From Minisyncoccota bacterium (GTDB lineage: Bacteria; Patescibacteriota; Minisyncoccia; Phycocordibacterales; UBA2100): a stretch of DNA of 64,000 nucleotides. Below are positions 4,178-47,842 of this stretch, piece by piece. A program made the translations under genes and the position numbers. Below the pieces are notes generated by a model, which saw only the letters and a program-made list of their open reading frames with translations, made no database searches and was not told the DNA's origin. Where the stretch lies: the NCBI GenBank assembly GCA_043780835.1, contig JAYWCB010000013.1:13512-77511 (forward strand), read 5' to 3'. Numbering within the stretch: position 1 is the first letter of the stretch; every line of letters begins with the position of its first letter.

Positions 4178-4711
4178 GGCTCGACCATCGCTCCTGATGG
4201 CCTTTTATTTGGGGTCGGAATTGATTTTCTGATCAACGAATATGCCTGACTGCCACTCGGCACGACGGCCTTCAAACCGAAGAGGGCGGGATGTGGATGG
4301 CTGAACTTTGACATTTGAATAGACAAAGCATTTTGCATCGAATTCTGTAGCGGAATTCGGTGTGAGAAAAACAATCAATGTAAATTCACAAAGATTGGTA
4401 AGACTCGAATATCCAATAAGCCGGATGTTCGAGAAGCAATGCAACACACAAGCAAGCAAACAAAATACAACGTACTGCGAAGCCCTAGGAGAGTTTCGTA
4501 GTATATGAGGAATAGAAACAGTACTGATTACATTGATCCAAATGTAAATCAGGAAACAAAAAATCAGATTGAATCATGTTCTTCGAACATGCATAAATGT
4601 GCATTCTTTTGTTTCGTCCATCCTAAAAAAGAACTAAATCAAATTTGTAACAGAATTTCATGGCAGTGCACTCAAGGATCCGTCCACGTGCACACTATGT
4701 AATACATTCTT

Positions 4712-6169
<1,458 letters not shown>

Positions 6170-6254
6170 AAATTGGACGCTGAAACACCCGCGAGGGTGC
6201 GGTAAGCTAATAGGCGATTTGGGTATCTCGATCGAGTACCCAAGGGAAATGGCA

Positions 6255-11396: not shown

Positions 11397-13106
11397 CTAT
11401 ACAAGGTGCAATGCCATGCGCATCTCGGCGATGGTGTGAAAGATCGTGCGATGCTCGAAGTAGGAGATGTTTTTGAGGATTTCAAATACGGGGGGCCGTA
11501 CATAAATCATCGATACACGGATGCGTTTTTGCTCAAGGCGTTCGATAAATTCTTCCAGTATTTCCATGCCGCTGATGTCGATAAAATTCACGCCCGACAT
11601 ATCAAACACCACTTCGCGCACCGTGTGGTTCACACGCATTTCGTGGAGCGCGATGAGGCCATGGATCTGATTGAGGGCATGCGAGGTGTTCGCATAATAG
11701 AGCGATACACCAATGCGCGCGATGACCACGCTTGGGAATATATGCACCTGATCGTCTTCGATCGTGCTCAAAAGGACTTTGCGTTCCAGATCAATACCGA
11801 CCTCGGAAACTTGTGCGCCCCACACGGTGCGGCGAATAAAGAGTAAGAGTGCGACAAGCATGCCTGTAAGGAGGGCGTCTTCCGGTTTCATCAGGAAGAC
11901 CATGCAGAACGTAAGTAGTGCGACGACGCCGTCTGAACGTGAAATCTTGTACATCGCCTTGATCCGATGGAAATCAACGAGCGACGCAGCAGAAAGTATC
12001 ACGATAGCGGCGAGAGCAGCGAGCGGCAAATAGTAAAAAACCGGTGTTAAAAAGAGAATGGTAATGACGGTCATTCCAGAACTTACGAGCGACGAGAAGC
12101 CCGATTTTGCACCAGCCTCATTATTTATTGCGGAGCGCGTAAACGATCCACTGATGGGGAATCCTTGGAAGAAACTTGTGGCGATATTTGCAAGACCTTG
12201 TCCGACCAATTCTTGATCGGTATTCAGGTGTTCTTTCTTCGGGCGGGCGAGCGTTGTGGCGTTAGCGTGTGTGGCGACGAATGCGACGAGTGCGATCACA
12301 ACGGCCTTCGGAAGCAGCACAGCGAGCGCAGTTACGCCAAAGAAGGGCAATAAGAAAGACGGTAATCCCGACGGTATGGTGCCCACGATCGCTACATGAT
12401 GGGTGTCGAGCCGGAAAAAATATCCCGCGAGGATTGCAAGCAAAAGTACACCAAGTGCGATCGGATATGTTTTCGGGAGCCGCTTCGTGAGATACAAAAT
12501 TGCCAGTGCCGTTATGCCGACGAGTGTTGTGAGTACGGTCAGACTCGGCAACTCATGCAACAAATTGATGATTGTTTTGAGTACCACATCAGAGCGCGCT
12601 GCAGAAATACCGAGCAAGACCGGAATTTGCGATACCACGATAAGTAATGCTGCGGCCGAGGAAAAACCCGCTATCACCGAGTGAGGAACGAGGTGAATCA
12701 TGGAACCGACACGAAATAATCCAAGGCCAAGATAGAGAAGGCCAGTCAAAAGTGCGAGCGTTGCTGCAAGCCGCACGAATTCGTCAGACCCCGGCGCGGC
12801 GAGTGATACGAGAGATGTGAGGGTGAGCAAACTTACCATTGCGACCGGTCCGGTAGAGAGCGTACGCGATGATCCCCAGAGAGATGCAATACATCCGAAA
12901 AGAGATGCGTACAGTCCGTACACGGCGGGCAGGCCGGCAGTGAGCGCAAACGCCATCGATTGTGGTATCTGAATAATGGCAACGGTGATGCCTGCCTGCA
13001 CATCGGCATGCAAAAACGATGATGAATACCTGAAACCGGGTCGCAGCCAAAGCGGAGTGAACAGGCGTGGAATACCGGCAACAAAACTTTGAACACGCGG
13101 CATCAT
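11397..13106 (-). CDS. SulP-family anion transporter with a C-terminal STAS domain
   Basis: 569 aa. Ten or more TM helices with the SulP signature region, and a C-terminal STAS-like domain (VVFDMSGVNFIDISGMEILEEF). Confidence 0.85.
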   Translation of the reverse strand: MMPRVQSFVAGIPRLFTPLWLRPGFRYSSSFLHADVQAGITVAIIQIPQSMAFALTAGLPAVYGLYASLFGCIASLWGSSRTLSTGPVAMVSLLTLTSLVSLAAPGSDEFVRLAATLALLTGLLYLGLGLFRVGSMIHLVPHSVIAGFSSAAALLIVVSQIPVLLGISAARSDVVLKTIINLLHELPSLTVLTTLVGITALAILYLTKRLPKTYPIALGVLLLAILAGYFFRLDTHHVAIVGTIPSGLPSFLLPFFGVTALAVLLPKAVVIALVAFVATHANATTLARPKKEHLNTDQELVGQGLANIATSFFQGFPISGSFTRSAINNEAGAKSGFSSLVSSGMTVITILFLTPVFYYLPLAALAAIVILSAASLVDFHRIKAMYKISRSDGVVALLTFCMVFLMKPEDALLTGMLVALLLFIRRTVWGAQVSEVGIDLERKVLLSTIEDDQVHIFPSVVIARIGVSLYYANTSHALNQIHGLIALHEMRVNHTVREVVFDMSGVNFIDISGMEILEEFIERLEQKRIRVSMIYVRPPVFEILKNISYFEHRTIFHTIAEMRMALHLV

Positions 13107-13545: not shown

Positions 13546-13588
13546 GATACAGGGTTATGATGTGAGGTCGTGTGTTTGTGTCTTGTGT

Positions 13589-13660
13589 GCGCTAGTAGTT
13601 CAGTGGTAGAACGCTGTCCTGATAAGACAGAGGTCGTAGGTCCGATTCCTACCTGGCGCA
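13589..13660 (+). tRNA. tRNA-Ile (anticodon GAU)
   Basis: Cloverleaf: 7-bp acceptor (GCGCTAG/CTGGCGC), D-arm gttc/gaac, anticodon stem ctgtc/gacag with loop ctGATaa, T-arm gtagg/cctac with loop tccgatt, discriminator A. CCA is not encoded. Confidence 0.85.
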
Positions 13661-13710
13661 CACAGCACGCAAAACACTCTCTGAGTCGCTCCTCACTACC
13701 ATCCGACAAA

Positions 13711-23394: not shown

Positions 23395-23903
23395 TGGTAA
23401 TCTCTCTCAAATATAGATTTGAAGAGAGCGCACGCTACCCAGCCGAAGACTCAAAAGGGGGCCACAAAAGACCTGGCAGGGTTAGCTCCCAGGCGGACCG
23501 ATCTCTCGAGTCAAGATACATCTCGGAGAGAAAACGAGATGTATCTGTTGGATGCGACTCTTATTTTTGCACGATAGCCTTCCACGCTTGATGCTATGGA
23601 GTGGGGATAACACGCGATTGAATACAAAAATGGCTTACTTATTGAGCGTCGGAAACGTCGCACATCGCAACCGGAAACGCTTACGAAACGATACCTCGGG
23701 ATGTCAATTTTTGTATGAAGAGTGATGGTTTTTATGCAACAAAAAACGCGTCGCGGTATACAATACGGCACTGTGCCCGCACACACGAAACGGCATAGTA
23801 TGCGTCGACTCTTTTACCTACCTACAACAAAGTAACAATCTCTATGTCTTCATTATCAATTTCAAACGGCATACAGAGACGATGCCGTTTCGTGTGATCG
23901 GGT

Positions 23904-28174: not shown

Positions 28175-28310
28175 TGCATGCCCGCACACTAACACTGTCG
28201 TCGTTATGCATGCAGAACAGTGTCTATTTCAGAATATGGCTACCAAATCAGTCAGTCCAAGAGTTGTCAAAATTGTTTCCACGGCATTACGACAGTGTTA
28301 GTGTGCGGGT

Positions 28311-29072
28311 ATGATCGGGATATTTGACTCAGGAGTCGGTGGTCTTACGGTATTGCACGCGATTCGCGAAAATTTGCCGAGCGCAGACGTGATCTATTTC
28401 GGCGATACAAAGAATGCGCCCTACGGTGAAAAAAGTCGGGAACAATTATCTGACCTCACCGTTGCCGCCATTCAGTTATTACAGAAACGCGGAGCGAATA
28501 ATATCGTGAGTGCGTGTAATAGTGTCTCCGCGTCGCTCGCGGTCTCACTTCTTGATGCGTTCGATCTTCAACCGGGACAATTAATCGAGATGGTCGGGCC
28601 AACGGTCAGCGTATTTCGCGGCGCGGATATGCGTATCGCATTGGCAGCGACTCCCGCAACGATCTTGTCTGAAATCTATCAAAATGCATTCCGTATGATT
28701 GGAAAGGATATCCAAGCGATTCCTGTGCCGGGACTCGCTGGTGCCATTGAACTTGGAAAACCGAACGAAGAAATAGAATCAATCATCGCCACTGCCTTTG
28801 CCGGGGTGGATCCTGCATCGTTCGATGTGTTGGTGCTTGCATGTACACACTATCCGTTTGCGACCACTTCATTCAAAGCAGTCCTCGGGGAACAGGTTTC
28901 TCTATTTGATCCGGCACTCGCGGTTGCGGCTCGCGTGGAGAAACAGTTCTGGCCCCGCGAAGTAGGCGACGGTACGACAAGATTTATCATCAGCGCTGAA
29001 TCTGCTGAATTTCGCCGTCTTGTTACACAATTTTTCCCCGACACGCGCATCGATATCGAGGTGCTCGTTTGA
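28311..29072 (+). CDS. murI: Glutamate racemase (MurI)
   Basis: N-terminus IGIFDSGVGGLTVL and the second catalytic Cys motif ACTHYP. Confidence 0.9.
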   Translation: MIGIFDSGVGGLTVLHAIRENLPSADVIYFGDTKNAPYGEKSREQLSDLTVAAIQLLQKRGANNIVSACNSVSASLAVSLLDAFDLQPGQLIEMVGPTVSVFRGADMRIALAATPATILSEIYQNAFRMIGKDIQAIPVPGLAGAIELGKPNEEIESIIATAFAGVDPASFDVLVLACTHYPFATTSFKAVLGEQVSLFDPALAVAARVEKQFWPREVGDGTTRFIISAESAEFRRLVTQFFPDTRIDIEVLV

Positions 29073-38729: not shown

Positions 38730-39449
38730 ATGCGTCAAATTGAGATACTCACTCATATCAGCGGATATAATTTGCGCGAGATACCGAAGCTCAAGACGGT
38801 CAATAAGGCCGGTGAGCCGCAACTCATGACCGACGGCGACTGGGAACATGCGTGCATGGGGGATGCGGATACGAATCAGCTCGGCAGAGTGCCTATGGGA
38901 CTGTGGGTTGCTAGAAAGTTCGGCGCAAAGACTGTTATCTTCTCGACCGGTTGCTCACGCCGCGTGAGCGACGGCAAAAGTGAGGCTGAGGTTACCTACG
39001 AGATGGCGCGCGAGCGTTACCATGATCTGCACGGATTTTTTCCGCACCGCTTTTCGAAGCGGATGTGGTCGACCGAGCAGGCGTATCATTCATGGCTCAC
39101 CCGAGTGAGCGTGTTTGATAACGTAAGCAAAAACACGAGTGAATCAATGCAGGTGTTGCAGACGAAAGTCTTGGAAGCCAAGCACCGCCGTCAGCACGTT
39201 GTTGTGTTTCTCGTGACATCAGCCAACCATGCCCCTCGTGTCCTACGTGATGCGGAGTTAGCCTTCGGTATCGGTACTGCATCAGCTGCAGCGTCGTTCA
39301 AGCAATTTGTGACGCTCTGCTCGATACCTGCCGAAACGAATTACGGCAAGCGACAGGTTCAGGACGTCAAGGTTGACGATCTGGGCAACTCACTGTTCAC
39401 CCGCAAGGAATGGCTCGCATTGAGTACGGGAGTGGGGGAAAGTGAATAG
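38730..39449 (+). CDS. Hypothetical protein, possibly DUF218 (YdcF/ElyC/SanA-like)
   Basis: The motif VVFLVTSANHAPRVLRDA resembles the DUF218 VTSxxHxxR signature. Tentative. Confidence 0.45.
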   Translation: MRQIEILTHISGYNLREIPKLKTVNKAGEPQLMTDGDWEHACMGDADTNQLGRVPMGLWVARKFGAKTVIFSTGCSRRVSDGKSEAEVTYEMARERYHDLHGFFPHRFSKRMWSTEQAYHSWLTRVSVFDNVSKNTSESMQVLQTKVLEAKHRRQHVVVFLVTSANHAPRVLRDAELAFGIGTASAAASFKQFVTLCSIPAETNYGKRQVQDVKVDDLGNSLFTRKEWLALSTGVGESE

Positions 39450-39461
39450 TTCTATTTAGAA

Positions 39462-39500
39462 ATCAGCAGCGCGGGAGCAATCCCGCGCTGCTTTCTTTTT
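39462..39500 (+). terminator. Intrinsic terminator
   Basis: Stem cagcagcgcggg..cccgcgctgctt followed by tctttttg. Confidence 0.6.
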
Positions 39501-39529
39501 GCCTACGGTCCGCTACCATGCGCTGAATG

Positions 39530-39598
39530 AATCCCGTTAGAAATAGCCCGCCCGTAGGCCCTGTGGGCGCGCCTAGCGCGGGCGCGATTTCTAACGGG
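39530..39598 (+). repeat. Hairpin-forming inverted-repeat element, copy 1 (arms ATCCCGTTAGAAAT / ATTTCTAACGGGAT)
   Basis: 14-bp perfect IR flanking a 42-nt GC-rich internal palindrome. Flanked by direct ATGAA at 39527 and 39599. The downstream ATG is the start of the GT4 gene. The element is in frame with that gene. Confidence 0.7.
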
Positions 39599-40810
39599 AT
39601 GAAGAAAATTCTTATTTTCTCGCTCACGTACCATCCGTATGTGGGTGGCGCAGAAGTTGCTCTGAAAGAAATCACGGACCGCTTGCCGGAATACGAATTC
39701 CACATGATCACGCTTCGCTTTGACAGTGCGCTACCGTATGCGGAAGAAAAAGGAAATATTACGCTCTATCGCATCGGGCCCTCGGTTTCGAATCCGACGG
39801 TATCCGACAGGAACATGCCGTTTATGCTGCGTCTCGCTAAATGGCTGTATCCGATCAATGCCGCGCTCACTGCACTCGCGCTGCACCGCACGCAACGCTT
39901 TGACCTGACGTGGTCAATGATGGCGAATCACGCAGGGTTTGCGGGCATGATTTTCAAACTGTTTCATCCAAATGTGCCGCACGTGCTTGAGCTACAGGAT
40001 GGCCGCGCATTTGCAGACATGAAAGATCGTCAGCCGATCCTGCGCCTTATCTGGCCGCTCTATACCCGCGTGTACCGATGTGCGGATGCTATCAAGGTGA
40101 TTTCGAACTTCCTCGCGAATGAAGTACAGAAACTCGGCGTATCCGCGCCGGTGCATATTATTCCCAACGGAGTCGATGTCGCAAAATTTTCCGCACCGAT
40201 TTCAGACGAGCGGATTCTCGATTTGAAAAACAAACTGAATAAAAAAATGGGGGATGTGATTTTGTTCACCGCGTCACGTCTCGTGCTCTCCCGTGGTGTC
40301 GAGGACACCATCCGCGCACTCTCACATTTGCCTGATAACGTGCGGTTTGTCGTGGCGGGTACCGGTGACGACAAAGAAAAACTTGAAACAATCGCTCGCG
40401 AGGCGCAGGTTGCAGATCGTGTGCAGTTCGTGGGGCATGTCGATCACCGAGAACTCCCGGCGTATTACAAAGCGTCGGATATTTTTGTGAGACCGTCGAT
40501 CATCGAAGGTTTCGGGAATGCATTTGTTGAAGCCTTTGCGGCCGGGATTCCGGTGGTTGCAACTGCAGTCGGGGGCATTCCTGATTTTCTTTTTGATCCG
40601 GATAAAAATAGCGACAAACCACCGACGGGGCTTTTTTGTTCGGTCCGTGATCCGGTATCGATTGCCGCAGCGGTGACGCGATACATCGATACTCCGGCAT
40701 TGGTATCAGAGGTTGTCTCAAACGCAAAAATACTGGTCGCAGAAAAGTACGACTGGAATAGTATTGCGAAAATGCAAAAAGATTTCATGTTCGAGGCTCT
40801 CTTAAAATAA
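39599..40810 (+). CDS. Glycosyltransferase family 4 (GT4)
   Basis: EX7E motif region (EGFGNAFVEAFAAGIPVV). The ORF could extend upstream through the repeat to the ATG at 39527 (extra MNPVRNSPPVGPVGAPSAGAISNG). Confidence 0.8.
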   Translation: MKKILIFSLTYHPYVGGAEVALKEITDRLPEYEFHMITLRFDSALPYAEEKGNITLYRIGPSVSNPTVSDRNMPFMLRLAKWLYPINAALTALALHRTQRFDLTWSMMANHAGFAGMIFKLFHPNVPHVLELQDGRAFADMKDRQPILRLIWPLYTRVYRCADAIKVISNFLANEVQKLGVSAPVHIIPNGVDVAKFSAPISDERILDLKNKLNKKMGDVILFTASRLVLSRGVEDTIRALSHLPDNVRFVVAGTGDDKEKLETIAREAQVADRVQFVGHVDHRELPAYYKASDIFVRPSIIEGFGNAFVEAFAAGIPVVATAVGGIPDFLFDPDKNSDKPPTGLFCSVRDPVSIAAAVTRYIDTPALVSEVVSNAKILVAEKYDWNSIAKMQKDFMFEALLK

Positions 40811-41214
40811 TCCTGCGCACCGAAACCGCTTGCGTGCTTCGTATATACGCGCTTATGTGAATACAGCGTCAACCACGGGAGGCTCTGATGGACTCAGTTC
40901 TTACGGCCTACATCGATGCGAATGAACGTGCTGCTCGAGCACATATGGGTCTCGTGCATGCGTCTATGGCGTTTTATCTCACGTTCGTGACGAGGTGCAT
41001 TGTTGAACCATTGCTTGCGGTTTTGCCGCCGTCTGCCGCACAGCGCGCAATTTCCGCAGTGAGACGATCGTCTTTCGGTGCACATGTGGTCATCGAGACC
41101 AATGTACCGCAATGGAATCTGCGCGCATAAGCGGAACTGGCGCGATGGAAAATCGGTGATAGTTTAACGATAGGCATAGCGTTCAATTGTGCCTCAACGG
41201 AAAGGAGTGACAGA

Positions 41215-41391
41215 ATGACAACCATCTGCACCTCAAGGCCCGAAGCGGATGCGCGTCTTTTATATCCACCGCTCGCACGCGAAGTTGCCCAATTCTGGGC
41301 CGGCGCTCTGGATACCACTGTGCTCTTGCCGTTCAATATCTGGTTTCGAATTGTGTTTGCAATAACTCCTCGGAAACCGGAAACTGCATAG
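41215..41391 (+). CDS. Possible small ORF (58 aa)
   Basis: AAAGGAG RBS 7 nt upstream of the ATG. Not in the ORF track (under 60 aa). Weak support. Confidence 0.25.
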   Translation: MTTICTSRPEADARLLYPPLAREVAQFWAGALDTTVLLPFNIWFRIVFAITPRKPETA

Positions 41392-41472
41392 CCCTCAGTG
41401 CTGACCTGAACCTTTTTTGATGGCGTGCTACATCTCGTAGCGCGCCATCATGCTTTGCGCTATGGTGACCTC

Positions 41473-41757
41473 ATGAATCCCGTTAGAGATTCTGACAATT
41501 GGTACACCTATGTTTTGCGTAGTAAAAAGGACCAGAAATGGTATACAGGGTTCACGCACGATCTTCGGAAGCGCTTCAAAGAGCATAGCGATGGTCAGAG
41601 CGTGTCAACAAAAAACCGTGGCCCATTTGAGCTCATATATTATGAAATGTGTCGGAATGAAACAGATGCAAGGTCGAGAGAATTATTTCTTAAATCGGGA
41701 ATGGGCAAGCGTTTCCTCAAAACTCGTATGAAGCGCTTCCTATCTCTAACGGGATGA
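41473..41757 (+). CDS. GIY-YIG nuclease-family small protein (UPF0213/YhbQ-like)
   Basis: WYTYVLRS...WYTGFTHDLRKRFKEHSDG...FELIYYEMCRNETDARSRELFLK matches the GIY-YIG core. The N-terminal MNPVRD and C-terminal SLTG residues are encoded by the inverted-repeat arms. The stop overlaps the next gene's ATG (ATGA). Confidence 0.75.
   Translation: MNPVRDSDNWYTYVLRSKKDQKWYTGFTHDLRKRFKEHSDGQSVSTKNRGPFELIYYEMCRNETDARSRELFLKSGMGKRFLKTRMKRFLSLTG
41476..41753 (+). repeat. Hairpin-forming inverted-repeat element, copy 2 (arms ATCCCGTTAGAGAT / ATCTCTAACGGGAT) carrying a GIY-YIG ORF
   Basis: 14-bp perfect IR. Flanking direct ATGAA at 41473 and 41754. The loop region equals the GIY-YIG coding sequence. Confidence 0.7.
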
Positions 41758-42746
41758 AGGTGGTAATAGCGACCGGAATATTCCCGCCCGAAGTGGGCGG
41801 TCCTGCGTTTTACTCCAAGAGCCTCTCCGAAGCGCTCAGTGCACAAGGACACGACGTGCGCGTTGTGTTGTATGGAACTTTAAAGTCGTGGCCGAGCGGG
41901 CTTCGTCACGCGCTGTACTGTTTTAAGCTTATGCGGCATGCATTTGGTGCAACATCTATCATCGCGTTCGATACATATTCTGTCGGATTGCCTGCGGTCG
42001 TTGCGGGGATGTTGATGCGAGTGCCGGTCACGATTCGCATCGGCGGGGATTTTATATGGGAAATGTATACCGAGCGCACGGGCGATTTAATACCACTTAC
42101 GGAGATTTATCATGAGCGGGGACGATGGGACTCGAAAGAACGTTTTATCTTCCGAGTGCAGCGCTGGGTCATTCCGCGTGCGACACTCGCGTTTTCGTGC
42201 GCATGGATCCGCGACTTGTGGAAAGATGTCTATTCATTTGATGACACGCAAACAAGTGTTATCGAAAATCCGATACCGCAGAAGCTCGAATCTAAGAAGC
42301 CGCTTCGAAAGAATTTTGCGTTTTACACGCGGCAGATCGCACTCAAGAATAACGATGCGTTCCGCCGAGCGTTTAATCGCGCAAAAAATGTGCACCCCGA
42401 CATTGAGCTCGAAGAGGGCATGGTGCCAAAGGACGATCTGATGCGCCGCATGCAGGAATGCTACGCGGTTGTGCTCCCGTCAATCTCCGACGTGACGCCG
42501 AATTACATAATCGACGCGATACGATGTGGAAAACCTTTTTTGCTGACGAAATACAGTGGCTACGCCGAGCGGTTCAAGGAGTATGGTGTGATCGTGGATC
42601 CGTTAAGCGAAGAGGATATGACCCGGGGCATCATGGCACTTGCCGAAGAAAAGACGTATGACATCTACAAAAAACGGCTTGCGGAGTTCGACACCGTACG
42701 CACGTTTGATGACATCGCGCGCGAGTTTATCGCGCTTACGAACTGA
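41754..42746 (+). CDS. Glycosyltransferase (GT4-like)
   Basis: N-terminus MKVVIATGIFPPEVGGPAFYSKSL is typical of the GT4 N-domain. Confidence 0.75.
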   Translation: MKVVIATGIFPPEVGGPAFYSKSLSEALSAQGHDVRVVLYGTLKSWPSGLRHALYCFKLMRHAFGATSIIAFDTYSVGLPAVVAGMLMRVPVTIRIGGDFIWEMYTERTGDLIPLTEIYHERGRWDSKERFIFRVQRWVIPRATLAFSCAWIRDLWKDVYSFDDTQTSVIENPIPQKLESKKPLRKNFAFYTRQIALKNNDAFRRAFNRAKNVHPDIELEEGMVPKDDLMRRMQECYAVVLPSISDVTPNYIIDAIRCGKPFLLTKYSGYAERFKEYGVIVDPLSEEDMTRGIMALAEEKTYDIYKKRLAEFDTVRTFDDIAREFIALTN

Positions 42747-43497
42747 CCTTCTTCGCCTTTACGATAAAAGCGGTCCCAAGAAATCGAAGTGGGGTGCGAT
42801 CGAGATGCTCGCACACTTTCGACAACCACACGGTGAATTTTGGGAGAAGTCTATCAAGCGGAAAGGGAACGAGTTTAAAATTGTAGTAGAGGACTTCCGT
42901 CGTCTCTAATCCGTGCTCACGTTGGAGTGCGATTACATGTTCGTGCGTGTATTCGCGGTGCAGCAAAATCTTCTTTTTACCCGGTTGTACGATAGATACT
43001 AAAAAACGGAGGAAGCGATTCCAGAGCCGCCACGGACTACGCACATTCGGGTAGGTGATGATTGATATACCGTCGTCTTTTAAAATACGGTTCGTTTCTT
43101 TGAGGTATCGCGGTTCGTCGTCGAGGTATTCAATAAGCCCCATTGCGGTCACGATGTCGAACGCTTTATCTGGAACAGCAAGCACATACGCATCGCCCAC
43201 TGCACATGTAACATGCGGGTCACCGGCCGCTTCTTGTTTTGCGAGCTCCACCATATCCGGTGCGGCATCAATCGCGGTCACCTCGTAGTGCTTTGCGCGC
43301 AAACCTTTGATCATAATGCCCGGCCCGCACGCGAGATCGAGAATGTGCAGCCCCGCGCCGTCCGGGAGCATATCGAGCACCTTTTCGCGCCGCACTCGAA
43401 ATGAGTAGCCTTCGGGTGTTTCGTCCGTGTACCAGCCGAGGTAGGTCTTACTTAAGTCATTGAAATATGTCACCTCTGTTCTTCGATCTGTAGTCAT
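42736..43497 (-). CDS. Class I SAM-dependent methyltransferase
   Basis: Motif I ILDLACGPGIM. Confidence 0.8.
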   Translation of the reverse strand: MTTDRRTEVTYFNDLSKTYLGWYTDETPEGYSFRVRREKVLDMLPDGAGLHILDLACGPGIMIKGLRAKHYEVTAIDAAPDMVELAKQEAAGDPHVTCAVGDAYVLAVPDKAFDIVTAMGLIEYLDDEPRYLKETNRILKDDGISIITYPNVRSPWRLWNRFLRFLVSIVQPGKKKILLHREYTHEHVIALQREHGLETTEVLYYNFKLVPFPLDRLLPKFTVWLSKVCEHLDRTPLRFLGTAFIVKAKKVSS

Positions 43498-44462
43498 AGT
43501 CGTGATTTCAGGAATAATCGCACACCGCTCAGTATATTGGCAAATGTCGCAAAGTCCTCCGTCGCATCGAGCGCGAATCGATGAAGCCGATACGGCGAAG
43601 TCGTCGCATCGTTTACGCCCTCGATGGTAGTGAGAGCGTATGCAAAACCTGCCTCTTTCAACAGCACTTCGGTATCAGCATTCCAATCGCCTGATTGACC
43701 GTTGGGATACGCGAATACCGACGAAACAGTCACTCCGAGCGCTTCCAGATCGTGCTTTGAGCCCAGGATTTCATCTCGTTGTTCAGTGGTAGATTGTGTG
43801 GCCAAAATCGGATGCGTTTTGGTATGCGCCCCGAACGATATGCCATGCGTCTGCATCTCTAGGATCTCACTCTCTGAGAGCGGAGCGTACACCGCTCGAT
43901 CGTCGTCAAAATCTTCGAATTTCGTCCAACCGATTTGTTCGACGTTGCGCAGGTCGTGTTCGAGCATCAATGGTGAAAGTTTCTTGAACCGATCCCGGGT
44001 CTCGGCATCAAGCGCAATTTTCTCGGCATACGTGCCCTCGTCTTTTCCGATTGCATATTCGAGCCGATCGACCCACAAGGGAACTGATCGACACACGAAG
44101 TCTGTTGCGAGATATACGATAGCAGGAATGCCGCGTGCGCGCAGGATGGGAAACGCATGTGTGTAGAAATTTTTGTAGCCGTCATCAAATGTAATCACGA
44201 GCGCATTTTCCGGAAGCGTTCCCGCGATCATGCGCTGCGCCGCCTCTTCCATGGGCAGTATTGTGTACCGATTTTTCATGTATTCGATCTGTTGGGCGAA
44301 GCTTTCCGGCGTAATGAATTTGCCCCGGTAATTGTAAATGCCCGAGTCAATACGGGGTGCTACACCGTGATACAGTACGATCGTAAGCGAATGTTTATGC
44401 CTAGTACGGAACAAAGCGGGGACACCGCACAGATACAACAGTCGAAAGAAGAGGCGCTTCAT
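43494..44462 (-). CDS. Polysaccharide deacetylase (NodB-homology, CE4)
   Basis: NodB motifs (VITFDDGYKNFY, H-rich motif region). The likely start MKRLFF is at 44462. The listed ORF extends to 44498 through the repeat arm (MRHCRPRPISNG). Confidence 0.8.
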   Translation of the reverse strand: MKRLFFRLLYLCGVPALFRTRHKHSLTIVLYHGVAPRIDSGIYNYRGKFITPESFAQQIEYMKNRYTILPMEEAAQRMIAGTLPENALVITFDDGYKNFYTHAFPILRARGIPAIVYLATDFVCRSVPLWVDRLEYAIGKDEGTYAEKIALDAETRDRFKKLSPLMLEHDLRNVEQIGWTKFEDFDDDRAVYAPLSESEILEMQTHGISFGAHTKTHPILATQSTTEQRDEILGSKHDLEALGVTVSSVFAYPNGQSGDWNADTEVLLKEAGFAYALTTIEGVNDATTSPYRLHRFALDATEDFATFANILSGVRLFLKSRL

Positions 44463-44573
44463 CCCGTTAGAAATAGGACGCGGACGACAATGTCGCACAC
44501 CCTAAACCGCTATGCCCAATAAAGACGACCATATGGAAGATAGTACCAGCGCGTCCGCGATTTCTAACGGGAT
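44463..44573 (-). repeat. Hairpin-forming inverted-repeat element, copy 3 (opposite orientation; arms ATTTCTAACGGGAT / ATCCCGTTAGAAAT)
   Basis: 14-15-bp IR flanking an 85-nt segment. In minus-strand orientation the flanks read ATGAAT...ATGAAG, as in copies 1 and 2. The minus-strand deacetylase gene starts at the duplicated ATG. Confidence 0.7.
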
Positions 44574-44691
44574 TCATCCGCTGCATTATAGGCCATATTC
44601 GGTACTCACTGTAGGTACTGAGCTCGCCGTGCTTTCCCCTGAGTCGCCGGTACGAAAACGAATTTTTTCATATGGTAGGTATTTCAAGGCA

Positions 44692-45669
44692 ATGCACATT
44701 GTGCTCATGAGTGGAATTACCGGTCAGGGTAATGCGCACGACGAAAACGTGACGGTGTACCCGACGAATTCACCGTCAAAAATACTTCGCTACTTTGACG
44801 CCCTCAAGATCGGCAAGACAATTGCAGGAATCGACATTGTTTCGTCGCAGGACCCGTTTGAGATCGGATTTATTTCCTGGCGTATCTCGCGACACCACAA
44901 GGTGCCGCTGCATGTGCAGGTACATACTGACTTTCTTTCACCGGAATACGCCGCGCATTCAATCATCAATTTGATACGGGTCGTGATCGCAGGATTTATT
45001 TTGCATCGTGCGGCACATGTACGCGTTGTTTCAAAAGAAGTCGCGGATCGCATCATCGCAAAGTACGGGACAAAAATCCCGCTTTCAATACTACCGATTT
45101 ACGTAGATCTCGAACGGTTCCGTTCCGCAACGGTTCCCGTGTCGATGTCGCAACGATTCCTCACATTTCCGCACAAGGTTCTGGTGGTTGCGCGATTTGA
45201 GCCTGAGAAAAATGTGCTGTTGGCAATTGATGCGTTTTTTGAAGGTGCACCGAAAGACGCGTGCCTCATAATCCTCGGCGAGGGGAGCGAGTATACGATG
45301 CTCGAGCGGCGTGTCACCAAACTCGGGCTTGATGCACGCGTGTTTTTTGAGGGGTACAAAGACCCATCGCCGTATTACGCGCTTGCCGATATCGTGCTCG
45401 TGCCGTCCGTGTATGAGGGCTACGGACAAGTGATAATTGAGGCACTCGCGGCACATAAACCGGTCCTTTCAACGGATGTGGGAATTGCAAAAGAAAGCGG
45501 CGCGATGATCGCCGCACCCGAGCAATTCGGCGCTGCACTGAAGGCGTGGTACGAAAACGGACCGCGAACGGCAGAACTCGTAAACTACCCGTACCCGTCA
45601 CTTCAAGATTACGTGGAGAAATATTGCGACGACATCGCATCTGTTAAAAAAGAAAAAACCGCGGTGTAA
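44692..45669 (+). CDS. Glycosyltransferase family 4 (GT4)
   Basis: C-terminal GT4 motif VPSVYEGYGQVIIEALAAHKPVLSTDVG. The start is taken at MHIVLMSG. The listed ORF extends upstream to 44512 through the repeat (..AISNGIHP..). Confidence 0.75.
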   Translation: MHIVLMSGITGQGNAHDENVTVYPTNSPSKILRYFDALKIGKTIAGIDIVSSQDPFEIGFISWRISRHHKVPLHVQVHTDFLSPEYAAHSIINLIRVVIAGFILHRAAHVRVVSKEVADRIIAKYGTKIPLSILPIYVDLERFRSATVPVSMSQRFLTFPHKVLVVARFEPEKNVLLAIDAFFEGAPKDACLIILGEGSEYTMLERRVTKLGLDARVFFEGYKDPSPYYALADIVLVPSVYEGYGQVIIEALAAHKPVLSTDVGIAKESGAMIAAPEQFGAALKAWYENGPRTAELVNYPYPSLQDYVEKYCDDIASVKKEKTAV

Positions 45670-45690
45670 CCCGCGGTTTTTTTACACAAA
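45656..45690. terminator. Bidirectional intrinsic terminator
   Basis: aaaaaaccgcggtgtaacccgcggttttttt. Confidence 0.6.
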
Positions 45691-45751
45691 GGCACCTCTC
45701 ACAAGCTGGTGCTTTTGGCAATGTTGCGATAGCCCAATGAATACGCCATAA

Positions 45752-46687
45752 TTGGCCACTATGAAGAAGCTACCCCTAAAAAAGACGTCAAAAAAGGGGC
45801 CTCTCGTCGGGTTTGTTGGTCAGGGCTGGCTCGGAAAAAACTATGCAGACGATTTTGAAAAGAGAGGCTATTCGGTGATTCGCTACTCATTGGAAGAACC
45901 GCATGTAAAGAATAGGGACGCAATTTCAACCTGCGATATTGTTTTTATCGCGGTGCCTACGCCGACGACACCGAAAGGTTTTCAGGACCACATTGTGCGC
46001 GAGGCTCTCGCACACGTGGGGAATGGAAAGATTGCCGTCATTCGCTCAACACTGATGCCGGGAACGTTGCGCTCGATGCAAAAGCAGTATCCCAAGAAGA
46101 TTCTCATGCATGCACCTGAATTCTTGAGCAGAATTACTGCGGCAGATGATGCCGCGCATCCGGCACAAAATATTATTGGCATAGCGCGGGCGACACCTGC
46201 CTACACGGCGGCGGCAAAGAAGGTCCTCGCAGTGATGCCAAAAGCGCCGTCCATGATTGTTTCTGCGGAGACCGCCGAACTCTACAAATACGTGCACAAC
46301 ACGTCATTGTTTGCACGCTCAATTTTTATGAATCTACTTTATGAGATAGCTGTCGGATTTGGCGTTGATTGGGATGATATAAAACGTGCCATCCAGCGAG
46401 ATCCGATGATCGCGTTTCAGGTGGAAAATGTATCGCACTGGCATATTGAGCCGCGACACACGGGGGGACGCGGCATCGGCGGTGATTGTCATATCAAAGA
46501 TATCGAGACACTCTCGCGTGTGTACGCGCAGGTTGTTGGTGACACGGACGGAACAAAGGCCATCGATGCGATGAAGCGCAAAAACATTCATTTACTTTTG
46601 CAGAGCAAAAAAGATCTGCACTTGCTTGAAGGTGTATACGGCACACAGGTACACAAAAAGATTTTAAAGAAAGGTTCAAAGAAATAG
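45752..46687 (+). CDS. UDP-glucose/GDP-mannose dehydrogenase-family protein, short (311 aa)
   Basis: N-terminal NAD-binding motif (GFVGQGWLG), IAVPTP motif and a catalytic-Cys motif GGDCHIKD. The usual C-terminal UDP-binding domain is missing. The stop lies 1 nt before repeat copy 4. Confidence 0.65.
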   Translation: MATMKKLPLKKTSKKGPLVGFVGQGWLGKNYADDFEKRGYSVIRYSLEEPHVKNRDAISTCDIVFIAVPTPTTPKGFQDHIVREALAHVGNGKIAVIRSTLMPGTLRSMQKQYPKKILMHAPEFLSRITAADDAAHPAQNIIGIARATPAYTAAAKKVLAVMPKAPSMIVSAETAELYKYVHNTSLFARSIFMNLLYEIAVGFGVDWDDIKRAIQRDPMIAFQVENVSHWHIEPRHTGGRGIGGDCHIKDIETLSRVYAQVVGDTDGTKAIDAMKRKNIHLLLQSKKDLHLLEGVYGTQVHKKILKKGSKK

Positions 46688-46691
46688 TATG

Positions 46692-46810
46692 CGTCCCGTT
46701 AGAGGCCGCGGAAGCTACCGCATGTTTTTGTTCACGGTATAGTGTTTTACATGAACGAACCTACGCAGAGCGAGCGGGTTCGGGAAGCGACGCTTCCTGC
46801 CTCTAACGGG
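46692..46810 (+). repeat. Hairpin-forming inverted-repeat element, copy 4 (arms GTCCCGTTAGAGGC / GCCTCTAACGGGAT)
   Basis: 13-14-bp IR with compensatory changes relative to the other copies. Flanking direct ATGCG at 46689 and 46811. The downstream ATG starts a GT gene. Confidence 0.7.
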
Positions 46811-47842
46811 ATGCGCCTTTTGATCGTCACACAGGCGGTCGACACAAAGGATCCGGTACTCGGTTTTTTTCACCGATGGATCGAGGAAATGGCAGCGCAC
46901 ACGGAGCGCGCGCACGTGATCTGTCTCAAAGAGGGTACGCACTCGCTGCCTGCACATGTGACCGTGCATTCATTGGGAAAGGAGACGGGTCGCTCTCGTC
47001 TCAAATACGTCTTACGGTTTTATTCGTATATATGGCGCTTACGAGGCGAGTATGACGCGGTGTATGTGCACATGAATCAAGAATACGTGCTGCTGGGAGG
47101 TTTGTTGTGGAGGCTCCTCGGTAAAAAAATCGTGCTGTGGCGCAATCATAAGATCGGTACGGTGTGGACGAACATTGCTTGTGTACTTTCAAATACCGTC
47201 TGCTTCACCTCTGGCGCCGCGTATGTTGCGCGTGAACGTAACGCGGTTCAAATGCCGATCGGTGTAGACACGACACTGTTCGCGCCGCGCGGTGCTGTGC
47301 TTGCGCGATCAGTTCTGTTCCTCGGGCGTCTTGATCCCGTAAAGAATGTGCACTTGTTCGTCTCTGCGCTCACAAAAATGTACGAGTCAGGAGAAGTATT
47401 CAAGGCGGCAATATACGGTTCACCGACGGATCCGAGATCAAAATATGCGCACGATGTGCGAAATCAAGCAACTGTCCTCGCGACCGAAGGAGTCCTGAGT
47501 GTACACGACGGCGTGACCAACGACGATGCCGCAAAGCTCTTCGCGGAACACGAAGTGTACGTAAACCTCACACCCTCGGGAAGTTTCGACAAGACAATCG
47601 GTGAGGCAATGTCAGCGGGTGCGATTGTCGTAGCGATGAACGCTGAGGTACAGCCGGTGCTGCCAGCGTCTCTTTTTGTACACGATGAAACACCCGAGAG
47701 TGCTGCGTATGCAATTACCGCAGCACTTGCACTCCCATCAGTGGAGCGCGATCGGATCGTCAATATTTCGCGTCGCTACATCAGCGATGAGCATTCACTT
47801 ACAAAGCTCGTTACAAAACTCATGCCGTTGCTATCTACCTAG
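46811..47842 (+). CDS. Glycosyltransferase (GT4-like)
   Basis: The start MRLLIVTQ sits directly at the repeat's 3' flank. GT-B fold-like sequence. Confidence 0.7.
   Translation: MRLLIVTQAVDTKDPVLGFFHRWIEEMAAHTERAHVICLKEGTHSLPAHVTVHSLGKETGRSRLKYVLRFYSYIWRLRGEYDAVYVHMNQEYVLLGGLLWRLLGKKIVLWRNHKIGTVWTNIACVLSNTVCFTSGAAYVARERNAVQMPIGVDTTLFAPRGAVLARSVLFLGRLDPVKNVHLFVSALTKMYESGEVFKAAIYGSPTDPRSKYAHDVRNQATVLATEGVLSVHDGVTNDDAAKLFAEHEVYVNLTPSGSFDKTIGEAMSAGAIVVAMNAEVQPVLPASLFVHDETPESAAYAITAALALPSVERDRIVNISRRYISDEHSLTKLVTKLMPLLST

Follow-up and report, generated by a model that had tools for sequence, protein, structure and literature searches.

A 277-bp inverted-repeat element with a single GIY-YIG nuclease gene, inserted at a host start codon in a Patescibacteria genome: a probable minimal mobile element

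Small GIY-YIG nucleases associated with repeated hairpins are represented by the Ssn family, whose members are 94-amino-acid (aa), single-domain proteins that cut single-stranded DNA beside a hairpin repeat (NTS/SRM) (Chenal et al. 2025, Nat Commun, PMC11893778; cd10448). The genes of this family are flanked by NTS/SRM repeats, and an architecture resembling that of insertion sequences was noted by the authors (PMC11893778). The present work concerns a GIY-YIG nuclease gene enclosed by inverted repeats at positions 41478-41754 of a 64,000-nucleotide stretch of DNA from a Minisyncoccota bacterium (contig JAYWCB010000013.1 of assembly GCA_043780835.1), which is referred to as the window and supplies all coordinates below. 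The 16S gene of the window and the names given to its closest homologues indicate a Patescibacteria genome of the Kaiserbacteria/Paceibacterota type. A 2006 survey of the GIY-YIG superfamily lists no such elements, and no description of this one was found in the full text of the open-access papers and preprints searched; a prior account elsewhere is possible.

The segment is interpreted, with a probability of about 0.75, as a very small mobile DNA element that has inverted repeats of 12-13 bp, a 4-bp TNNA duplication, and a 94-aa GIY-YIG nuclease as its sole gene. It was compared with a set of 80 genome loci (designated by L numbers), mostly from Patescibacteria; together with the window, the set comprises 122 arm pairs and 73 full-length copies, and nearly all of the sequences are metagenome-assembled genomes. 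The element and its immediate surroundings are as follows.

41473-41757, plus strand: open reading frame (ORF) of the GIY-YIG nuclease, 94 aa; ATG from the host start codon, TGA from the 3′ duplication copy
41474-41477, plus strand: left 4-bp target-site duplication TGAA; relatives have a single ATGAA here
41478-41754, plus strand: full-length element, 277 bp (T-CCCGTTAGAGAT ... ATCTCTAACGGG-A); orthologous sites empty in L082/L083, L084, L085/L086, and L092
41478-41490, plus strand: left terminal inverted repeat TCCCGTTAGAGAT, encoding (N)PVRD
41742-41754, plus strand: right terminal inverted repeat ATCTCTAACGGGA, encoding SLTG; its final A is the A of the regenerated host ATG
41755-41758, plus strand: right duplication copy TGAA, supplying the nuclease stop TGA and the TG of the host ATG
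41754-42746, plus strand: host gene for a 330-aa GT4-family glycosyltransferase, with the targeted start codon; an uninterrupted ATGAA opens its orthologues in L082, L084, and L085

The evidence for insertion comes from syntenic relatives, which were fetched via the neighbouring glycosyltransferase (GT) gene. The gene order is DUF218, GT4, small ORFs, GT, methyltransferase, deacetylase, and GT4, and the host proteins are 75-84% identical to those of the window. The nuclease site reads ...tatggtgacctcATGAAAATTGTAATCGCGACGGG in L084 and ...tgtgaactcATGAAGCTCGTCATAGCGACCGG in L082, both with an uninterrupted ATGAAG, and ...tatggtgacctcATGAA[T CCC...GGG A]TGAAGGTGGTAATAGCGACCGG in the window. The element has therefore been inserted into the host start codon with duplication of the target site, and the inserted length, including one duplication copy, is 281 bp. 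All four window sites occupied by arm pairs of this kind (one full-length and three short) have an empty counterpart in L082-L086 or L092, with a single 4-mer and homologous flanks. Occupancy also differs between relatives: the closest nuclease, P0001 (88% identical in aa sequence), lies in the syntenic L092, where it occupies the start of the first GT4 gene, a site that holds a 66-nt arm pair in the window and no insert in L084 (CTCGGAATGAAGAAGATTC), and the start of the second GT gene in L092 is empty (GGTTGCGTCATGAAGCTCGTG). The host proteins that flank these sites are 76-79% identical between the window and L092, which is less than the 88% shared by the two nucleases. Other close homologues are found before a NUDIX gene and before aroA, and two copies at different sites of one metagenome-assembled genome (L018 and L025) share 94.9% DNA identity. 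Genes for IS200-like Y1 transposases (PF01797, weak matches) were also seen a few kb from the syntenic polysaccharide loci, at 1-527 of L084 and 1361-2023 of L085, and point to a neighbourhood that may be generally rich in mobile elements in these relatives.

The repeats and the gene are closely interlocked. The extended arms (41468-41490 and 41742-41764) are 23 nt long and 83% complementary, with a perfect core of 12-13 bp at 41478-41490 and 41742-41754. The ORF opens with ATG at 41473-41475, followed by AAT CCC GTT AGA GAT (MNPVRD), and closes at 41743-41757 with TCT CTA ACG GGA TGA (SLTG and stop). In an initial annotation of this DNA, both termini of the protein were ascribed to the repeat arms; this is correct for the codons of (N)PVRD and SLTG, whereas the ATG and the TGA lie outside the arms, in the TGAA direct repeat. 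The overlap that it reported between the nuclease stop (TGA, 41755-41757) and the ATG of the downstream glycosyltransferase (41754-41756) is present as an ATGA overlap. On the whole, that annotation stands with regard to the anatomy; the duplication, the empty sites, the insertion point in a start codon, and the donation of start and stop by the target had been overlooked.

By its sequence, the window ORF encodes an intact GIY-YIG nuclease. It matches PF01541 over residues 9-75 (E=9e-16, 58 bits vs. a cut-off of 22.6) as its one Pfam domain, and none of the recognised transposase classes (DDE, DEDD, HUH, serine, tyrosine, Cas1) is encoded by the element, whose only ORF is this one. An alternative in-frame GTG at 41425 would give a protein of 110 aa; the start at 41473 is supported, because more than 100 homologues are exactly 94 aa long and begin with MNPVRD. 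An exact-protein look-up returned no database record for the window nuclease sequence. In an AlphaFold model (predicted local distance difference test score, pLDDT, 85.8), the protein forms one compact domain with the GIY-YIG beta-beta-alpha-beta-alpha-alpha arrangement and a long basic C-terminal helix. Residues 1-9, encoded by the left arm, are disordered in this model, which suggests that the conservation of the N-terminus may be imposed at the DNA level. The resemblance to stand-alone proteins of the UPF0213/YhbQ type, proposed earlier, is borne out: the best solved relative by profile is the UPF0213 protein BH0048 (1zg2, E=2.1e-9), and Bacillus subtilis YazA is 40% identical to the window nuclease over 70 aa (52.8 bits). 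The fold ranking (Foldseek vs. PDB) likewise places 1zg2 first, next Slx1 (TM-score 0.56-0.63, query-normalised, with the AlphaFold model as query), and then I-TevI and UvrC.

The arms are not confined to the nuclease gene. The 8-mer CCCGTTAG/CTAACGGG occurs exactly eight times in the 64 kb, always in convergent pairs (four in total, at 39533-39598, 41479-41753, 44463-44571, and 46695-46810), and an 11-mer with one mismatch allowed gives 10 matches vs. 0.6 expected, a number reached in 0 of 100 shuffles. The gene-less pairs span 66, 109, and 116 nt, and all four pairs fall within 39.5-46.8 kb, in one 7-kb locus of glycosyltransferase, deacetylase, and methyltransferase genes. Each of the four is flanked by a 4-bp duplication. 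The three short pairs are non-autonomous members of the same family, comparable to miniature inverted-repeat transposable elements (MITEs), that were inserted in the same way at other starts.

39532-39599, plus strand: miniature copy 1, 68 bp with the terminal T and A counted; TGAA duplicated at 39528-39531 and 39600-39603
44462-44572, minus strand: miniature copy 3, 111 bp; TTCA, which reads TGAA on the minus strand, duplicated at 44458-44461 and 44573-44576
46694-46811, plus strand: miniature copy 4, 118 bp; TGCG duplicated at 46690-46693 and 46812-46815

Copy 1 adjoins the ATG (39599) of a 403-aa GT4 gene and is in frame from an upstream ATG at 39527; its site is the one that carries the full-length element in L092. 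Copy 3 lies on the ATG of a minus-strand polysaccharide deacetylase gene (43494-44462), at a site that is empty in L084 (GCGCTTCATCCGGCGCATTATA) and L083. Copy 4 lies on the ATG (46811) of a 343-aa ORF and has a subterminal hairpin, GGGAAGCGACGCTTCC, directly before the 3′ arm; the site is empty in L084 (CATAACATGCGGCTGCTC) and L085, and L082 carries an orthologous miniature at 11514-11631.

Such insertions affect gene calling. ORF prediction runs host genes through the miniatures, so that the first GT4 protein is called with 427 aa from 39527 (MNPVRNSPPVGPVGAPSAGAISNG followed by MKK...) vs. 403-408 aa in its orthologues, and many Patescibacteria proteins in the databases carry spurious N-termini (MNPVR.../...ISNG extensions) that stem from miniatures. 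In addition, a GT4 gene called at 44512 uses an ATG inside copy 3 (44512-44572), and its orthologue in L084 starts at a downstream GTG; the insertion of copy 3 may have given this gene a new start codon.

Across the loci, gene-less arm pairs measure 30-187 nt, with a mode at 114-122 nt. One of them (L033, 3043-3161) is an internal-deletion derivative, because it still encodes a 5′ part of the nuclease (...FYTYLLQS.KDKRWYTG). One miniature subfamily has a subterminal hairpin of variable sequence immediately before CCTGTCTCTAACGGG, and an extension, AGAAATAGGACGCGGAC, is common to window copy 3, L029, and L074. Since miniature subfamilies with common internal modules recur at non-homologous sites in different genomes, it can be argued that they move as such. 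Full-length and miniature copies also occur in tandem and share one ATGAA (L061, L033); therefore, the start codon rebuilt by one insertion served as the target of the next. Tandems were noted at 5262-5661 of L061, 2763-3161 of L033, about 9992-10284 of L073, and about 10000 of L039, with only the shared ATGAA(T) between the members (...AACGGGATGAATCCCGTT...).

The same copies could be viewed as cis-regulatory RNA hairpins that sequester the start codons of polysaccharide genes, one of which happens to hold a gene. The 3′ arm adjoins an ATG in four of the four window copies, the single strands fold into strong hairpins (z = -3.9 to -5.6), and the inner stems vary from copy to copy yet remain complementary. 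This account leaves aside the direct 4-bp repeats outside the inverted repeats, the orthologous genes of relatives that lack the hairpin entirely, the copies that exist away from start codons, and the unrelated housekeeping genes that are fronted elsewhere. Moreover, no Rfam family was found at the elements, either at the gathering threshold over the whole window or at E<=1 on 39300-47000. Regulatory hairpins are thus considered very improbable, and effects on translation are likely a consequence of insertion and not the reason for the existence of the repeats.

Reading the segment as a mobile element agrees with the distribution of its homologues. More than 1800 homologues were collected, nearly all of exactly 94 aa, in which the catalytic motifs are conserved and the termini written by the arms, MNPVRD and FLSLTG, rank with the best-conserved columns, with V4, R5, and F89 L90 S91 L92 T93 invariant. 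They represent at least 583 loci in species-representative genomes, mostly of Patescibacteria with some Omnitrophota and other bins; a full hidden Markov model search gave 2552 clusters (50% identity) at E<=1e-10, and proteins of some more distant subfamilies finish with ...YLTG, a match to the same 3′ arm. In the DNA of the 80 fetched loci, the arms bracket the nuclease gene almost without exception, with many gene-less short pairs alongside, and the core CCCGTTAG/CTAACGGG is paired in 125 cases. Of the two origins offered in the initial annotation, these observations favour a nuclease gene that belongs to the element over a cellular gene captured between the arms, as no arm-less orthologue was seen among the homologues fetched.

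The ends of the family follow a common scheme, Y-CCCGTTAGAGA...TCTCTAACGGG-R, in which the outermost base pair is complementary in 121 of the 122 pairs (T:A in 78, C:G in 43). A perfect 4-bp duplication flanks 75 of the 122 pairs, vs. 0-6 in distant registers; in the two neighbouring registers, the numbers are 59 and 25, owing to frequent one-base extension of the repeat. The consensus of the duplication is T (100%/84%)-N-N-A (89%/84%), TGAA being the most frequent form, and examples of directly repeated flanks are ATGAA T|...|A TGAAG, GTATGC|...|GTATGC, and GTCAAC|...|GTCAAC. A AAGCGCTT palindrome before the 3′ arm of full-length copies was considered as a hairpin and rejected; it is too short and is confounded by the K-R-F codons. 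Scanning of viral contigs for ATGAATCCCGTTAGAGA gave 0 matches, so that there is no sign of a phage vector.

It is also conceivable that the arms are used by an unrelated transposase encoded elsewhere, for example a DDE enzyme with 4-bp duplications, and that the GIY-YIG gene is a passenger. It is well established that several DDE insertion-sequence families typically have short terminal inverted repeats and 4-bp duplications; strand transfer is not known for GIY-YIG enzymes, and the IS200-like Y1_Tnp genes mentioned above lie near the syntenic loci of relatives. Y1 transposases, however, use no terminal inverted repeats and make no duplications. In about 1.2 Mb of loci, no arm pairs were found 430-6000 nt apart and the largest bracketed span is 283 nt, which gives no indication of a larger parent element. 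Furthermore, the ORF fills the element from end to end and has arm-encoded termini in hundreds of species of different phyla, and its catalytic residues are conserved, as would not be expected of a mere 94-codon passenger. A passenger gene is therefore held to be quite unlikely.

With regard to the target, the fronted genes represent 91 Pfam families among 76 genes and include topoisomerase I (four times), alanyl- and class II tRNA synthetases, ClpP, and type IV pilus genes; being unrelated, they indicate that start codons in general are targeted and not a polysaccharide pathway. A host ORF of at least 80 codons begins at once, with R-TG formed by the last base of the element and the duplication, in 56 of the 73 full-length copies (2 and 4 in the other frames). 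A stop codon directly follows GGR in 63 of 73 (TGA in 56) and lies in the duplication, and the codon at -6 is ATG in 42 of 73. Two ORF designs were distinguished among 67 copies. In the first (31 copies, including that of the window), the former host start, 6 nt outside the element, is the first in-frame ATG and yields 94-95 aa; in the second (28 copies), an internal ATG at +12 to +23 yields 86-88 aa, and the host ATG opens only a short leader. Some copies sit away from start codons. At 9976-10254 of L070 and 7362-7639 of L075, the duplication is TTTA and not of the TGAx form, and the nuclease ORF has no stop at the end of the element but continues for 379-478 nt into the flank; these read-through copies possibly make fusion proteins or are dead.

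The initiation context of the window was inspected as well. A GGTGA upstream of 41473 was considered as a ribosome-binding site and dismissed, as the 16S rRNA has no CCUCC tail and GAGG-type motifs precede only 2 of the 46 long ORFs in the window. The 16S gene (4711-6171) ends at 6140-6171 with ...GTGGATTCATTCCAAA instead of the usual ...GGATCACCTCCTTA, so that the CCUCC anti-Shine-Dalgarno sequence is missing, and the 16S tail of L094 is similar (GGAATCATTCC). The reverse complement of the 16S tail, GGAATGAATCC, contains the 5′ junction of the element, ATGAATCC, and occurs in full in L092; this match may be due to chance.

Taken together, the comparisons show a 277-bp unit that goes in at A|TNNA, with duplication of the four bases; here it has entered between A and TGAA of the glycosyltransferase start (A|TGAA|G). 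The host start codon and the initiation region upstream of it now open the nuclease ORF, the 3′ copy of the duplication provides its stop (GGA TGA), and the last A of the element together with the duplication rebuilds the host ATGAAG, so that the two ORFs overlap as ATGA. The host gene is presumably translated through coupling of termination and reinitiation, by which the host genes would remain expressed. As for movement itself, we infer that it is driven by the nuclease. The GIY-YIG protein would recognise the paired arms, perhaps folded into a stem when the DNA is single-stranded or extruded, in analogy to Ssn and Slx1, and cut at the ends of the element; a staggered cut of 4 nt would be made at a T-N-N-A target. 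Since GIY-YIG enzymes are hydrolytic and not known for strand transfer, ligation or repair by the host would complete the move.

Several points weigh against this reading. GIY-YIG nucleases are hydrolases, for which no strand-transfer activity is known; the joining chemistry is thus the weak point of the mechanism, and the proposed role in mobility is derived from sequence. No perfect duplication is found in 47 of the 122 pairs, and several full-length copies are decayed, with internal stops or a lost start codon. The borrowing of the host start is not universal, as the nuclease ORF opens at an internal ATG in about 28 of 67 full-length copies. Survivorship, in addition to target preference, could account for part of the enrichment at start codons, because insertions within genes would be lost and full-length copies away from starts would not be expressed. 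Finally, the Y:R class of the ends agrees between miniatures and full-length copies of the same locus in 27 of 44 cases, which is a weak tendency and not significant (p ~0.06).

An even chance is given to a wider proposition, namely that these elements are prokaryotic DNA transposons of a new class, with a 94-aa GIY-YIG nuclease as their sole enzyme; nucleases of this catalytic type are not known to power DNA transposition by cutting or copying. At about 277 bp, the element would be the smallest autonomous mobile element of cellular genomes, would parasitise translation and not transcription, and would have domesticated or collapsed relatives in the Ssn/NTS systems of Neisseria, Wolbachia, and Rickettsia. 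By taking the host start, borrowing a stop, and returning a rebuilt ATG, it would be harmless even before essential genes. If the nuclease does move the element, GIY-YIG would be a transposase class alongside DDE, HUH, serine, tyrosine, and Cas1, and the size floor for autonomous mobile elements would fall below 300 bp. The donated start and stop, together with the rebuilt ATG, provide a way to occupy the starts of essential genes in tiny, gene-dense genomes without death of the host. In addition, the element offers a testable origin for the Ssn/NTS hairpin repeats, and a compact nuclease family with sequence and structure specificity could possibly serve as a source of laboratory tools.

Two other inverted repeats in the window deserve mention. 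A second family, at 28177-28313 and 23776-23902, ends in CCCGCACAC...GTGTG(C/A)(G/T)CGGG and has CCCG/CGGG termini like the GIY-YIG element; its arms are 24-25 nt with 79-87 nt between them, each copy lies one base before the ATG of a long ORF (28311 and 23904), and the outer near-repeats are CATG/TATG and TGTG/TATG. No copies of it were seen in the fetched loci; possibly it is a further miniature element with start codons as its targets. At 13575-13673, a 21-nt inverted repeat (TTTGTGTCTTGTGTGCGCTAG / CTGGCGCACACAGCACGCAAA) brackets a tRNA gene (13589-13660) and extends well past the acceptor stem; this may be a stem for processing of the precursor or a further repeat element.

Among known systems, the Ssn family invites the closest comparison. 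As in the window family, Ssn proteins are single-domain and about 94 aa long, their genes are bracketed by inverted, hairpin-forming repeats, many gene-less copies lie near other genes, and the termini of the repeats are alike (TCAT-CCCG...CGGG-A). On the other hand, the window arms form one long palindrome with the gene in its loop, whereas the Ssn repeats are self-contained hairpins of 20-50 nt on each side, and the C-termini differ (LKSGMGKRYLKNRLKRFLSLTG in the window family vs. KKWxRxWKxxLIExxNPxWxDL in Ssn). Duplications, empty sites, insertion at start codons, and donated codons characterise the window family; target site duplication, start codon, Patescibacteria, and Parcubacteria are unmentioned in PMC11893778. 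The published SRM pattern, used as HGTCWYN(0-2)YYVSBRHN(0-5)WNVSBRGN(0-2)RNCYNB with L088 as positive control (4 matches), gave 0 matches in the 64-kb window and at 0 of 77 full-length elements within 300 nt on either side. L088 itself, from plasmid AZO_p3 of Azospirillum lipoferum 4B (255.4-255.9 kb), carries a 97-aa Ssn-type GIY-YIG gene that separates sufB from sufC; on either side of the gene lie two NTS-like repeats, CGTCATCCCCGCGAAGGCGGGGATCCAG, arranged head to head (four copies in all). The insertion has taken place in an essential operon and recalls the behaviour of the window element. Membership of the Ssn/cd10448 clade was judged by proxy, with SRM-flanked Ssn-type proteins as its representatives. 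The window protein scores 34-36 bits against these, which score 65-110 bits among themselves. Because of these lower scores, the 52.8 bits with YazA, the different C-termini, and the absence of SRM, the window family appears to be a sister group to Ssn and not a member of it, an assignment that is not final.

This likeness leads to a further explanation, in which the family is a domesticated, Ssn-like host system: a single-strand nuclease retained by the host, with dispersed hairpins as its recognition sites and mobility only in its ancestry. Its role could be to limit recombination or DNA uptake around surface-polysaccharide genes, as proposed for SsnA/NTS in Neisseria. The shared domain, length, and hairpin repeats, which in Ssn cluster around surface genes (PMC11893778), are consistent with it, as are the recovery of a genuine Ssn-type gene with four flanking SRM copies (L088), the beginning of its repeat (GTCAT-CCCCG), which resembles the TTCAT-CCCG of the window arms, the clustering of the four window copies in one 7-kb glycosyltransferase locus, and a profile comparison with an Ssn-type protein that gives 96% probability over the core. 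Nevertheless, the window protein is nearer to UPF0213/YazA than to the Ssn type, SRM is absent from the window and from the surroundings of the full-length elements, site occupancy varies between relatives with host proteins of 75-84% identity, the targets are start codons of 91 unrelated families with no single functional class, and many copies are decayed. Such a host system is regarded as unlikely, and a host function of this kind could possibly coexist with mobility.

GIY-YIG homing endonucleases (I-TevI, the Seg proteins of T4) share with the window family the catalytic domain, selfish behaviour, and insertion between operon genes. A classical free-standing homing endonuclease, of the kind mentioned in the initial annotation, would cut the empty allele and be copied in by homologous recombination; apart from the catalytic domain and the position between genes of an operon, a weak NCBIfam match to TIGR01453 (group I intron endonuclease; E=9.5e-4, 19 bits vs. 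a cut-off of 56) speaks for this. Homing enzymes, however, have long DNA-binding domains and one cognate site, and their spread is by recombination and involves neither inverted-repeat ends nor duplications, whereas the 94-aa protein consists of the catalytic core only, the element has both inverted-repeat ends and target-site duplications, gene-less miniature derivatives exist, and insertions occur at non-homologous sites in 91 gene families. Classical homing can hence hardly be upheld, and is the least probable of the explanations considered. Slx1, which cuts branch points and the bases of stems, belongs to eukaryotic repair, has a RING domain, and works with Slx4 as its partner; it is not mobile.

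The mobile-element reading has further counterparts among non-mobile and mobile systems. The UPF0213 proteins (YazA, YhbQ of Escherichia coli, BH0048 / 1zg2, EF2693 / 1ywl) are closest by sequence and fold and have the same length class and catalytic core. The yazA gene is fixed between trmNF and rsmI (inverted repeats or duplications at its ends were not searched for), whereas the window family is bounded by arms, occupies many sites, and is polymorphic. REP/RAYT (REPIN) and IS200/IS605 systems resemble the window family in having one small nuclease gene, inverted palindromic flanks, and many gene-less palindromes, and recognition of folded single-stranded DNA is probably common to all; they differ in their HUH Y1 enzymes, which form covalent intermediates, and in the lack of terminal inverted repeats and duplications, as opposed to the GIY-YIG enzyme and 4-bp duplications of the window family.

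Insertion sequences and MITEs, such as the Correia elements of Neisseria and the Rickettsia palindromic elements, share with the window family inverted repeats, short duplications, and the co-occurrence of full-length and deleted members. They also share tolerated insertions in or next to genes, some of them in frame, as with window copy 1, which adds 24 codons. Known autonomous insertion sequences measure about 600-700 bp at the least. The window element, unlike an insertion sequence, has a 94-aa GIY-YIG gene as its sole gene in place of a DDE, HUH, serine, or tyrosine transposase and extends over about 277 bp, and an element of the design found in the window, unlike insertion sequences and MITEs, has neither a start nor a stop codon of its own.

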